Made by a program: the position numbers and the translations under genes. 64,000 bases of DNA, from the NCBI GenBank assembly GCA_000002435.2, contig CM018789.1. One strand, written 5' to 3'. The notes under the pieces are model-generated. The model was not told the DNA's origin. It ran no database searches and was given only the letters and a program-made list of their open reading frames with translations. The DNA is from Giardia intestinalis (taxonomy: Eukaryota). This document shows positions 52,243-64,000 of this stretch, in pieces. The number at the start of each line of letters is the position of its first letter. Positions within the stretch are counted from its first letter, which is position 1.

Positions 52243-52621
52243 TACTAATCCTAAATCAGTTTTTTGATGACATACATGTTGTCTCAACATAGTGGTGACG
52301 CGCGCAGTAGACCTTAGTGGTTACATGACTCAGCAGTCTTCTGTGAACAAGAGCTTAGCACTGCTGGGTTCACTTTATCTTGGCAGACGGCTTCATGACG
52401 AGCCGCAGCATCGACTCCATGGCTTGTTGCAAGAACACCGCTGGCCAAGAGCACTGTACAAGAGAATTGGCACCACGAGCACATTAATATAGAAGTGGCT
52501 GATGGACAAGACTAGGGAGACTCTCTGGCCACTGACACTGTTCGTTGTTATTGCAATCCACATTACAATATTATTAAACCCCTGTTCGTGTTGAGTACGC
52601 TCGCGGCGAACCGCCAGCTAG

Positions 52622-53200
52622 ATCGATAAGTGCGAAATAGTCGGTGACGCAGAGATCTGCACCCAGTGCAACGGAGATGGGTCTCAATCTGCCCCGACGG
52701 ACGGAGTGTGCTCAGCAGACAATAACGAGTGTACCCGGAAGCAAGATGGGAAGTGCACACAGTGCGCTAATAGGTCCTTCATGTACAAGGGCGGATGCTA
52801 CAAGGATAGCCAGGCACCTGGCAACACGATGTGTGAAGCAGCAAATGCTGGAGTATGCACACAGGCTAAGGAAGGGTACTTCCTGCTACCAGACGCAGAC
52901 GACTCTCACCAGTCGGTCATACCGTGCGGAGATGACACAGTAGTAACAGTTAGCGGCGATAAGAAGTACAAGGGCGTGCTGCACTGTACTTAGTGTAATA
53001 CACCTGACGCAGCACAGGATACTACTACTCCCAAGGCTGCCACTTGCACGACCTGTGAGGATGGTTTCTTTGTAGATAGTAGTAATAGATGCACTGCTTG
53101 TCCGGAGAACTGCCTGACCTGCACTGGTAAAATAGTCAAGGAAGAAGCCGACGGGGCAACTGCTTACATTGCTACTAATGACTGTATTCAACTTTCTAGT
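52622..53200 (+). pseudogene. VSP / high-cysteine membrane protein pseudogene fragment (N- and C-terminally truncated, in-frame TAG)
   Basis: One frame reads ...ICTQCNGDG...ECTRKQDGKCTQC...GGCYKD...EGYFLLPDADDSHQSVIPCGDDTVVTVSGDKKYKGVLHCT. An in-frame TAG at 52991-52993 interrupts the reading frame. Beyond it the frame continues as CNTPDAAQDTTTPKAATCTTCEDGFFVDSSNRCTACPENCLTCTGK..., showing the CxxC spacing and GYF(L/F) motifs typical of Giardia VSPs. There is no start codon, no TM and no CRGKA tail, and the frame runs into a GC-rich non-coding block. Confidence 0.6.
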
Positions 53201-53914
53201 GAAGGCCCAATCTTTTTAATCCCCGTCTCTGAGGGGTTTGTCGTCTCCTGTTTCTATCTGCAGCCGCGCCGGGGACAGAGCGGCTCTCGCGGGGCCAGGC
53301 ACCTGGTGTCCTGGGCGGCGCCGGGTCTGAGTGGGTATGCGCCTTCAGCACTGTGGGCGTCCCCCGTCCCTCTCCTGTACAAGGGATCGGTGATGCGTAC
53401 CCCCTCGGTCTGCGTGCGGTTGTCAGTGCCCGTGCCTCGTGGTACCCCGGCTCTTTCAGCCCCAGCTGTCGTGGCGCCCTGCTCCGGCCATATCCCCACG
53501 AGGCCGCGTATTCTTCCATGGGACGGTCCTGGTTCCGTAGAGGCACGCCTGGGCCCACGATTCTCCCTGCGGAGGCCCCGTTGTCTGTGCTACTGGGGTC
53601 TGGGCCATCCGTCTGTACCGCTGCTTCAGGAGTCACATGAGTAAACTGCCTTTCACGTGGCTTTTTATAGAAGTAGACACTGATTGTAATCAACAGGGTC
53701 TAAAGATCTCTCGCCAATTGTACATGTCAGATCCTGTGGATTTTGGAATCCTTGGGTAGCATCCGTGCCCGGCTGATACGCGCGCCTCGGGCTCAGCAAG
53801 CCTGCCGCCCTCCTCCTCTTGCCCCCTGCGAGGACGCCGCCACTGGCTAGGCGCGTGCACAGCTTGTCCATCCGGCCCTTGAGAAGAGCCACATCACACG
53901 AGGAAGGGCGTCGT

Positions 53915-54721
53915 TTACTCGAGGAGAGAGGCGATTGCGTCGTGGCCATGCCTCCTTGCGATGTCGAGGGCGGTGGTGCCGGGCGGGAAGCCGAACCACT
54001 CACGGGTGGTCTGCATGCCCTTCTCCTTGTCCATCAGGAGCCTCGCACACTCCAGGCGGCCACTCTGCGCTGCATGCATGAGCGCTGTCCATCCATTGTT
54101 AGTCTTCATGCCGTCTTCTTTGTCTATTAGAAGCCTCACGCAGTCCGAGCAACCGTTGTCGGCTGCGTGCATGAGGGCAGTCCACCCACTGTTGGCCCTC
54201 ATTCCGCATTCCTTGTCCAGTAGAGCCTCCGCACACTCACAGCGCCCATACTGTGCTGCATACATTAGGGCGGTCTTCCCATCATCCGTTTTCATGCCAC
54301 CCTCCCTCTCCAGGAGGAGCTGCACGAACTCCAGTTTGCCGCGCTGTGCTGCGTACATAAGGGCAGTGGTGCCGTTGTTCCTCCTTTTGCTGCCTTCCCT
54401 CTCCAGCAGGAACTTCGCGCATTCCGGGTGGCCCCCGTACGCCGCCCGCATGAGCGCGGTCTCTCCAAGCTTATTCTGTGTGCTACCTTTCATCTTCAGC
54501 AGAACCTTCACGGCTCTCAGGTTTCCATACTCTGCTGCTGACATGATGTCGGTCTCGACGAAGCCGTATTTCAGCAACAAAAAAGACGAGAGACTCAGCC
54601 CGCTCCTCCCTTGTTGGTGGTAAAACTCTGCGGCTTCATCGATGCTCCTATCAGAAGCAGACCCCTCGGTGTCCTGAGAGCGACGACTCATTTCCGAAGC
54701 CCCAAGCACGTCGCTCGACAT
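53915..54721 (-). CDS. ankyrin-repeat protein (Giardia 'protein 21.1' family)
   Basis: Six or more 33-aa ankyrin repeats of the form G-x-TALM-x-AA-x-x-G-x-x-E-C-x-x-LL-x-x-E. ATG at 54719-54721 (MSSDVLG...) is preceded by AT-rich GTTAAAAATG. The track's longer ORF to 54871 is a GC-rich read-through. Confidence 0.8.
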   Translation of the reverse strand: MSSDVLGASEMSRRSQDTEGSASDRSIDEAAEFYHQQGRSGLSLSSFLLLKYGFVETDIMSAAEYGNLRAVKVLLKMKGSTQNKLGETALMRAAYGGHPECAKFLLEREGSKRRNNGTTALMYAAQRGKLEFVQLLLEREGGMKTDDGKTALMYAAQYGRCECAEALLDKECGMRANSGWTALMHAADNGCSDCVRLLIDKEDGMKTNNGWTALMHAAQSGRLECARLLMDKEKGMQTTREWFGFPPGTTALDIARRHGHDAIASLLE

Positions 54722-54999
54722 TTTTAACTTCGTCTGCTTGCAGGAAGACACTGCCACGGAAACACACACTTTGCTCTCTACTTCATTGAGAACGGTTTGC
54801 CAACTGCTGTCCGAGCATCTCCGTGGGAGCCGCCGCGCTGGGTGGGTCTCCGCTCGCCGTCCGGGGTCCAAATCCAGAGTCCGAGGTCGGATGCCCTCGA
54901 TCCCGGCGGAAGAAGAACTCCTATGTCTGCCTCCCCTGGAAGCTGCCGCTCCTCGCGGTGCCCCCTAGGACTTTCCTTCCTTTGGCTAGCTTGGGTCAG

Positions 55000-55940
55000 C
55001 TCCGTCTGATATCTAGTGAGCACCTGCTATCTCGGATCTTGCGTCAGTCGCGACGATCTGGCCTCCACAGAATCCAAGGCCCTGGTGCTCCATGACGAAG
55101 ATCCCACGCCACGACCCCGGGTGTCCACCCCGTTCCTCGGGGTGCCTCTTCGTCTCCTCGTGGAGGGCACCATCTGTTCCATTCTCAAGGGTGCGCTCCC
55201 CATGCGCCTCTATCTTGAGGTTGTGGTACGCGTTTGTGGATGCCGGCGGAGCACTCCCATGCGTTGTGTCGGGGGAGAGGCCCACCTCTCTGCTCATGGA
55301 TCGCAGAGGTGGTCTGTCACCCAGCACGAGATCATGTCGACGCCCACCCTGTGCAGTGCGTCTGGCTCGGCTGACAGTGTGAGCTGCGTCCATCTGACAG
55401 CACACTTGGAGATGATGCTTCGGTCTGTCGAGGCAGTCAGTCCAGGGCCACCCCTCTGAAGGGTGTCATATGAAGTATCAAGAGCGATCAGGACAGGTTC
55501 ACCGAAGTCGTCTCGCTTGGCGCTCATCTACTCGAGGGTGTCAGGCACTGCCAGCTGCTGCGGCAGACCCTAGGTAGGTGACCCAGACCACCACTCTCGG
55601 TGCGGGCAGGATCAGTCCGCCTCTGCCAGCCAAGCACCCCAACTCCCATCTCTTGTCGAGGGATTCACATGGGTCACGTGTGGATCCATCTCGACCAGCG
55701 TGACAAGTGATTAGTGCCATCACTGGCTTCAGGCTCTCCGTTGCCTTGGGCGTTCCTTGAGACCAGCCAGGAAGGAGGCCTCCTGCTTCTCAGTGTTCCT
55801 ATACTTGTCAGTGTTGACCGTCGAGCCATGTCGCTTCATCAGGCCTGCCGCCTCTGTGGCTACCCCCGTTGCGTCACTGTCGTCACTGTAAAAGATGAGT
55901 GTGTCGTCAGTGTAGGCAATGAGCTTGAAGCGGCTCACTA
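55000..55940 (-). mobile_element. 5'-truncated, frameshifted non-LTR (R2/REL-endo-like) retrotransposon remnant: RT motifs C-D-E plus degenerate endonuclease region
   Basis: Minus-strand ORF 55729..55938 reads FKLIAYTDDTLIFYSDD...GSTVNTDKY...FLAG, matching the RT motif C (YxDD), the motif D NxxK region and the motif E FLG. Upstream of it the sequence turns AT-rich with no RT motifs A/B, so the element is 5'-truncated. Downstream frames (55013..55527) are GC-rich and frameshifted, with a CC...H...RRHDLVLGD segment resembling a degenerate R2-type CCHC/PD-D-K endonuclease. Confidence 0.45.
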
Positions 55941-63268: not shown

Positions 63269-63545
63269 CCACAGCCGGATGGACACCGAGGGGCGGCCAG
63301 TGGAGAGCCCCGACAGCAATCACCGAGTCAGACGGGAGCATCTAAAAAAGACGGCGACCAGAGCTTCACCCACCGTGAAGGAAGACCAAGGAGAGGCGCC
63401 ACTGGTGGACGACGCAGATGGGTAAGTAAGCTGAACCCCTAAAGGACCGATGTACGCATTCGGTCTGAGCACACGCTTGTGGAACGACCGAGGAGCGCAC
63501 CAGGCTCTGGATGTATCACTGGAGAGGATTCTCTCGTTATATTAT
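63269..63545. repeat. right arm of long inverted repeat (277-bp core)
   Basis: Reverse complement of 61128-61404. Diverged extension inward to about 63090 and outward to about 63610. Confidence 0.85.
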
Positions 63546-63663
63546 TCACAACCAGCCATCGTCTCTGGACTGGTCAGGAAGGAGCGATGATTACCCACAC
63601 GATCTCTGGACCGCGCTCAGATAGCCCCAGCAGCACATCTACATAGGCTACATAAAGTAACGC

Positions 63664-63670
63664 GTTTACT
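63664..63670 (-). terminator. polyadenylation signal AGTAAAC 8-16 nt after VSP stop
   Basis: Reverse complement of gtttact at 63664-63670. Confidence 0.6.
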
Positions 63671-63677
63671 ACCTAAG

Positions 63678-64000
63678 TTACGCCTTCCCTCTACATATGA
63701 ACCACCAACACAAGAAGCCTATGAGACCACCTACAACAACAATCACAGCAACGGAGATCCCTGCTATGGCCCCTGTGGAGAGGCCACTCTTGTTTGTACT
63801 ACCACCGGTGTTATCATCACCACCACTAGTGCCGTCTGTTTTGACATAGCAAGTAACAGAGCCACTACCACCAGCCGGAGGAGCGCAGCTTATGCAATTA
63901 GGCACACCAACTATTCCGTTGGCACTAGCATCACACTTCACGCAGCTACTTCCGGACTTATAGTATCCGGGGAGGCATTCTGAGCATGCTTTGGGACTAC
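63678..64000 (-). CDS. variant-specific surface protein (VSP), 3' portion only (gene continues beyond window end)
   Basis: Minus-strand frame is open to the window edge. CxxC-rich ectodomain (CISCAPP, CTQC-like spacing), TM helix [25 protein letters not shown] and the invariant cytoplasmic tail CRGKA, then stop (TAA at 63678-63680). Confidence 0.85.

Follow-up and report, generated by a model that had tools for sequence, protein, structure and literature searches.

A probable internal VSP-associated variable island at the edge of a gene-dense core block on a Giardia duodenalis WB chromosome

Sharp boundary between a gene-dense core and an island

We analysed a 64,000-nucleotide stretch of DNA (the window) from the 1.485 Mb chromosome (1,485,438 bp) of Giardia duodenalis WB (assemblage A1) and found that its architecture changes sharply at about 52.3 kb. 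With a probability of roughly 85%, we regard this position as the edge of an internal VSP-associated variable island that interrupts the conserved gene-dense core of Giardia chromosomes. Up to position 52290 the window held 26 tightly packed open reading frames (ORFs), among them genes for PfkB, a BEACH protein, a cyclin, a DEAD-box/eIF4A-like helicase, a MIZ-finger protein, SRP54 and a class-3 lipase. ORFs beginning with ATG covered 93.1% of positions 1-52290 versus at most 49.4% of positions 52291-64000, or about 40% of the latter with credible genes alone, and each 11.7 kb segment lying wholly before 52.3 kb showed a coverage of at least 86%. Core genes lay a median of 54.5 bp apart and never further than 618 bp, while the four island spacers measured 827-3076 bp, each of the four exceeding every core spacer (Mann-Whitney p = 8e-4). 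GC content rose from about 47% to 58-65% in blocks past 52.3 kb. The island thus combined features by which VSP-associated variable regions are recognized, namely a lower coding density and a higher GC content than the flanking core and the joint occurrence of VSP and VSP-pseudogene sequence with NEK, ankyrin (protein 21.1) and reverse transcriptase (RT) sequence (Pfam matches to VSP, Ank and Pkinase, and a sub-threshold match to RVT_1).

The initial annotation of this DNA had proposed an abrupt transition from compact core to accessory sequence at this position, with eIF4A and SRP54 as examples of housekeeping loci upstream of it. The change was as sharp as proposed, and both loci were recovered by ORF and domain calls (DEAD-box/eIF4A-like gene at 31143-32318 and SRP54 gene at 47061-48653, both on the minus strand). 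All gene-family calls and all listed parts were present at or near the places given for them, and the families named as typical of Giardia variable regions (VSP, 21.1, NEK, RT) agreed with published descriptions (PMC3091692, PMC7000408).

The source of the window could be assigned with precision. A VSP tail ending in CRGKA together with the Pfam VSP matches marked it as Giardia, and three of its ORFs were exact matches to proteins of WB clone C6 (KAE8301849.1, KAE8301850.1 and KAE8301846.1), all encoded on the 1,485,438-bp chromosome. SRP54 of the window corresponded to KAE8301843.1, and an A1 short-read contig was 100% identical over 38160-52722. A scan with NCBIfam yielded nothing further.

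Synteny and divergence between assemblages

For comparison we used the genomes of P15 (assemblage E, ACVC01000045), BAH15c1 (assemblage B, JXTI01000126) and DH (assemblage A2, AHGT01000007) as well as short-read contigs. The last core gene, the hypothetical gene GL50803_10270 (GL50803_0010270; 51046..52290, minus strand), matched KAE8301846.1 exactly, and its annotated 398-aa form starts at 52242. This gene was collinear in A2, B, E and one further lineage (ERR3333379) up to 52242-52312. The perfect cross-assemblage synteny which the initial annotation had named as the observation that would count against a variable region was not found past this point, and different genes follow in the two more distant assemblages. 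P15 was collinear to 52312 and then encoded an intact VSP of 684 aa, oriented like the VSP pseudogene of WB, after which the contig ended. BAH15c1 was collinear to 52242 and then encoded a 1233-aa NEK-ankyrin gene of the active type, again followed by the contig end; its kinase had HRDLKPDN and DFG intact and shared 34% identity with the NEK of the window. Synteny with both assemblages was therefore lost within about 50 bp of the start of the boundary gene. Two short-read contigs of other lineages lost alignment at 52243 and 52312, with the contig ends lying about 340-610 bp further on.

The A2 isolate DH was collinear over 46588-63794, and gene order was wholly conserved within assemblage A. 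The variability expected for the region was found in assemblages E and B but not in the gene content of the A1/A2 pair, in which order was kept through 63.8 kb and the NEK and ankyrin genes were not variable in presence or absence at that depth. Sequence identity between A1 and A2 differed greatly among the parts of the island. Core genes were 97.4-98.7% identical, and the single-copy genes of the island were at a core-like level (NEK, 98.3%) or only slightly below it (ankyrin gene, 95.4%). Lower values were obtained for the repeat-derived or multi-copy parts, with 92.3% for the BPI-like (BPIL) gene, 91% for the centre of the inverted-repeat (IR) element, 88.6% for the VSP pseudogene, 84.7% for the RT relic and 80-82% for the IR arms. 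Repeat-derived segments were thus 80-92% identical versus the 97.4-98.7% of core genes, as measured between two assemblies. The divergence between A1 and A2 is a mosaic that is concentrated in the repeat-derived segments.

Location and nature of the island

The content of the region had been described as subtelomere-like in the initial annotation, and this holds as an analogy of content. Giardia subtelomeres reportedly consist of rDNA units and GilM/GilT non-LTR (non-long terminal repeat) retrotransposon arrays that abut TAGGG repeats. Retroelement-derived sequence and variable gene families are common to such chromosome ends and the island. The island differs in that the window contained neither runs of TAGGG or CCCTA nor any telomeric retrotransposon that was intact or arrayed, and that no rRNA or other Rfam match was obtained in 52-64 kb; the sole sub-threshold Rfam match in the island, to pRNA with E = 0.06, was taken as chance. 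In DH the locus occupied positions 87-108 kb on a contig of 203 kb, which leaves 87 kb and 95 kb to the contig ends. Past the VSP gene followed a gene for 664 aa in which VSP, ankyrin and kinase domains were all absent. Since the DH locus is so far from the contig ends and an ordinary gene lies beyond the VSP, we interpret the region as an internal island of about 13 kb and not as a subtelomere. That the right end of the window approaches the end of the chromosome, the variation being due to telomere-proximal instability, appears improbable to us. The VSP, RT relic, NEK and ankyrin content does resemble Giardia chromosome ends, VSP pseudogene arrays are telomere-adjacent in G. muris (PMC7641422), and the protein accessions come late in the numbering seen for the chromosome, which is a weak hint. 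These families are, however, spread over all WB chromosomes (PMC7000408).

The same picture could in principle result from a chimeric assembly in which repeat-rich sequence was wrongly joined to a core contig at about 52.3-52.7 kb, and all short-read assemblies do break at 52722-52771. Such an artefact is very hard to reconcile with the independent DH assembly, which is collinear across the junction, and with five short-read contigs from different samples which pass 52290 and reach the repeat after a further 430-480 bp of island sequence. Contigs of independent short-read assemblies (SRR3602123, SRR3596237, SRR1957168, SRR17450159) all terminated at 52722-52771 within the VSP pseudogene, which was seen in A1, in A2 and in one close relative, and the final 23 bp of one of them switched to paralogous sequence; this interval marks the exact start of VSP sequence that is repeated genome-wide. 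The NEK gene was found on isolated contigs of 3.3-4.3 kb. Together with the contig ends in the VSP pseudogene this indicates that the island consists of unique genes separated by multi-copy DNA. We see equally little reason to regard the island as foreign DNA gained by horizontal transfer. The abrupt rise in GC to 58-65% in blocks would fit such an origin, but the recognizable content is entirely Giardia-specific or Giardia-expanded (VSP, protein 21.1, NEK, BPIL), the GC-rich parts are non-coding repeat relics and a raised GC content is native to VSP regions (PMC3091692). A stable functional cassette, such as a surface or secretory locus under common regulation, would explain why order and orientation were fully kept between A1 and A2 and why the four credible genes and the VSP all lie on the minus strand; BPIL paralogues on two other DH contigs also adjoin VSP-like sequence. 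We nevertheless consider a cassette unlikely, as the arrangement around BPIL varies (RT sequence upstream on one of these contigs versus downstream here), E and B have other content beside the boundary gene, and non-coding relics make up over half of the island's DNA.

Several points weigh against an internal variable island with the history proposed below. The contigs of P15 and BAH15c1 stop 2.7 and 4.7 kb beyond the boundary; BPIL, NEK and other island genes may lie further on in these assemblages, and the break in synteny could be due to insertion or replacement and not to a complete lack of homology. The RT relic at 55.7-55.9 kb falls short of the Pfam threshold. The first GC-rich block is conserved like the core (97%) and does not fit a simple rule of fast-evolving GC-rich repeats. 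The internal location is taken from the position of the locus in DH and not from a WB chromosomal coordinate, and gene conversion is suggested by patterns of divergence only.

Possible history of the island and comparison with known regions

The boundary is fixed and falls within divergent intergenic DNA, with GL50803_10270 on one side and an ancestral VSP locus on the other. This locus is still intact in assemblage E, has decayed in A to a fragment that GC-rich sequence truncates, and has a different NEK gene in its place in B. The island is a mosaic with two components. One consists of single-copy genes evolving at or near the core rate (the ankyrin protein and the NEK pseudokinase), and the other of multi-copy or repeat-derived sequence, comprising the VSP pseudogene, the RT relic, the BPI-like paralogue, a 2.6 kb RT-derived IR element and the VSP gene. 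Old insertions of a now dead non-LTR retroelement may have come first, followed by duplication and decay of VSP genes, and ectopic recombination or gene conversion among the dispersed copies may then have swapped sequence locally. The expected outcome would be high divergence, lineage-specific content and large non-coding spacers next to intact unique genes, which purifying selection would maintain.

Unique island genes diverge at or near the core rate, and only the multi-copy pieces diverge fast. This pattern points to ectopic recombination and not to a regional mutation effect. It is also in line with gene conversion or ectopic recombination that the two IR arms of WB are more alike (86%) than orthologous arms of WB and DH (79%). 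GilD is a dead non-LTR retrotransposon family of Giardia. The degeneracy and the RT traces found here are consistent with GilD.

Similar regions have been described before. Jerlstrom-Hultqvist et al. 2010 (PMC3091692) reported VSP regions with higher GC content and different codon usage that lie at synteny breaks together with VSP, protein 21.1, NEK and RT genes, and proposed that gene-rich syntenic regions are interspersed with them. According to Xu, Jex and Svard 2020 (PMC7000408), the surroundings of VSP genes are gene-poor and rich in single-nucleotide polymorphisms, and the families occur on all WB chromosomes. The island shares with these non-syntenic VSP regions its GC content, low coding density, VSP genes and pseudogenes, NEK, 21.1/ARP, RT remnants, synteny break and position amid conserved gene-dense blocks, and differs from them in nothing essential. 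Judging from the divergence between A1 and A2, raised variation may be a further common trait. What is added here is the boundary at base level (52242-52312), the A1/A2 mosaic and the decay series across E, A and B. The island is one instance of an already published architecture in an annotated reference genome and does not change current understanding. It does provide a clean base-resolved example of conserved gene-dense blocks broken by small islands in which there is turnover of surface-antigen genes, of dead retroelements and of expanding families.

VSP pseudogene, GC-rich blocks and reverse transcriptase relic

The first element past the boundary was a VSP fragment at 52620..53190 (plus strand; Pfam VSP, 2.4e-8), which covers approximately residues 450-626 of a complete VSP. 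The fragment contained an in-frame TAG at 52991 and had no start codon, signal peptide, transmembrane segment or CRGKA tail, and is therefore a pseudogene. The VSP found at the corresponding position in P15 matched it with 38% identity in a tblastn search (E = 1e-17). On its 3' side, at 53215, the pseudogene was cut off by GC-rich block 1 (53215..53640, no strand assigned), a non-coding segment of 426 bp with 65% GC. This block was 97.2% identical to DH, which is a core-like level, gave no match to Pfam or Rfam and showed no excess of RNA structure (z = -0.85, -0.23). In DH, an annotated 352-aa 'VSP' ORF reads through the counterpart of this block.

GC-rich block 2 together with a putatively 5'-truncated RT relic occupied 54872..55940 (minus strand; RVT_1, motif C). 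The initial annotation had placed the first block correctly and confined the second one to 54870-55000, which is too short, as the raised GC extends over about 54800-55800. The LINE (long interspersed nuclear element) relic listed in that annotation corresponds to an RVT_1 trace with a YTDD box (motif C, AYTDDTLIF) at 55729-55938 on the minus strand. The trace is weak, with E-values of 1.1e-4 (22 bits) and 1.3e-3 below the Pfam cut-off. The RT motif is also conserved in DH, and the relic fragment had no match among PDB sequences. These findings are compatible with a 5'-truncated LINE copy within the second block, as far as the sequence can tell.

Within the island, positions 54872-55495 formed the sole segment for which no alignment of WB (624 bp) to DH (998 bp; L013 12230-13227) was possible. 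Only patches of 65-200 bp with 68-82% identity were left there. The adjoining positions 55496-55940 were about 85% identical to DH. The unalignable segment looks like a local replacement inside the GC-rich block that carries the RT relic. Neither of the two GC-rich blocks showed nucleotide similarity to the IR element or to the RT-bearing element on DH contig L007 (AHGT01000116), block 1 resembled none of the other GC-rich elements, and ORFs within the GC-rich blocks and within the IR element had no entry in the protein collection searched.

Ankyrin, BPI-like and NEK genes

Between the two GC-rich blocks the window encoded an ankyrin-repeat protein of the protein 21.1/ARP-1 type (53915..54721, minus strand; Pfam Ank_2, 1.5e-77). 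The gene showed a tandem periodicity of 93 bp and was 95.4% identical to its DH orthologue at the nucleotide level.

The next gene, GL50803_113130 (GL50803_00113130; 56208..57716, minus strand), was 100% identical to KAE8301849.1. Its ORF of 502 aa has a hydrophobic N-terminus, and no Pfam match was obtained for the protein. An AlphaFold model (pLDDT 80) was matched by Foldseek over nearly its full length to human BPI (1bp1, 2.7e-22), LBP (4m4d, 8e-19) and CETP (2obd, 7.5e-18). The protein is thus predicted, on the basis of this model, to adopt the BPI/LBP/CETP boomerang fold and to carry a secretion signal. It agrees in all respects with the Giardia BPIL family described by Ankarklev et al. 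2015 (PMC4570179), a small and fast-diverging family of proteins of about 503 aa with signal peptide and boomerang fold that has eight genes in WB. The available part of the supplement to the P15 paper contains no mention of 113130. Two BPIL paralogues, DHA2_154150 and DHA2_154105, are located on the short DH contigs L006 (AHGT01000137) and L007, respectively, where they adjoin VSP-like ORFs and repeats resembling the IR arms; L007 also carries an RT ORF. Judging from these neighbourhoods, BPIL members seem to be generally located in variable islands.

An AT-rich spacer of 827 bp (57717..58543, no strand assigned; 39% GC) separated the BPIL gene from a NEK-ankyrin kinase gene (58544..60601, minus strand). 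A second one of 426 bp (60602..61027, no strand assigned; 39% GC) followed on the other side of the kinase gene, so that the 0.8 kb which the initial annotation gave for the spacers around this gene applies to the first only. The NEK-ankyrin gene was an exact match to KAE8301850.1, with its ATG at 60601, and showed Pfam matches to Pkinase (3.3e-29) and Ank. Its catalytic loop reads IIHGGLTPTS, with HGG in place of HRD, and VAIK is replaced by AVRE (K to R). In agreement with the earlier call we therefore predict a pseudokinase, that is, a catalytically inactive protein. The gene was 98.3% identical to the DH copy (L013 6982-9174), and the indel between them corresponded to exactly one ankyrin repeat of 31 aa. 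Across isolates, the cluster of NEK sequences at 90% identity contained length variants of 657, 678, 685, 709, 716 and 730 aa. The indel and these variants point to a polymorphism in repeat number, the gene being otherwise 98% conserved.

Inverted-repeat element and terminal VSP gene

The IR element spanned about 2.6 kb (61028-63640). Its left arm (61028..61578) was 86-87% complementary to the right arm (63106..63640), which ends about 40 bp from the stop codon of the VSP gene; no strand was assigned to either arm, and arm lengths were about 535-550 bp. The centre (61579..63105, plus strand) comprised 1.5 kb with 61% GC and is a degenerate derivative of an RT-bearing repeat. The element was collinear in five blocks with 3.2 kb of DH contig L007 (2527-5728), a segment which holds an RVT_1 ORF, and positions 62383-62746 matched the RT region of this contig (3574-4050) with E = 9e-11, as compared to 0.036 for the best of 30 shuffles. 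By this similarity the IR element is a second retroelement relic derived from an RT-bearing repeat. The initial annotation had recognized an inverted-repeat structure of 2.5 kb and missed this nature of it. A six-frame Pfam scan of the element gave no match, so that it is without recognizable coding capacity, and the RT ORF of L007 had no protein-level match anywhere in the window.

Arm-like sequence was also present on DH contigs L006 and L007, and the IR arms therefore belong to a dispersed repeat. The two arms shared 86% identity within WB versus 72-78% within DH (L013 3860-4445 and 6020-6600), and orthologous arms of WB and DH were only 79% identical next to a NEK gene with 98%. This suggests that the arms may have been homogenized or exchanged with other copies.

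The 3' end of a VSP gene (63678..64000, minus strand; Pfam VSP, 9e-37) ran off the window. It encoded a transmembrane segment and the CRGKA tail, and past the stop codon we found the extended VSP polyadenylation motif ACTTAGGTAGTAAACGC (63662..63678, minus strand) as an exact match to the motif in PMC3091692. The C-terminal part thus has the features of a VSP, and the N-terminus lies beyond the window. Alignment to the VSP of DH was possible only up to 63794, that is, over the conserved tail. A scan of metagenomes for VSP 3' ends gave no match.

The far end of the IR element was about 2.65-2.69 kb away from the VSP stop codon. Tail-to-tail duplicated VSP pairs in WB have spacers of 2526-2813 bp (Table 2, PMC7000408). 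Here a VSP 3' end is followed by an IR module of about 2.6 kb, and the spacing falls within the published range. Unlike in these pairs, there is only one VSP, and the sequence left of the IR element (60602-61027) contained no VSP remnant. We tentatively raise the possibility that the IR element is a solo copy of the module forming the uniform 2.5-2.8 kb spacer of all twelve WB tail-to-tail VSP pairs. If this were true, these spacers would derive from a dead RT-bearing retroelement with terminal inverted arms of about 530 bp that abut VSP polyadenylation sites. The arms would be homogenized within the genome, and the module could serve as a recombination substrate creating and maintaining inverted VSP duplications.

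Further observations in the core block

Some features of the core block are independent of the island. At 24684-24927 on the minus strand, Rfam detected nuclear RNase P RNA (RF00009, 78 bits, E = 2e-20), which fills the sole large gap of the core, with the cyclin gene on one side and the neighbouring ORF on the other. A long ORF on the minus strand (37653-38282) and another on the plus strand (38215-40452) overlapped by 68 bp at their 5' ends, and the 745-aa member of this pair is called as 666 aa in some Logan contigs of A isolates. The BEACH-domain ORF encodes 4207 aa at 8990-21613 on the minus strand and, with 12.6 kb, takes up one fifth of the window.

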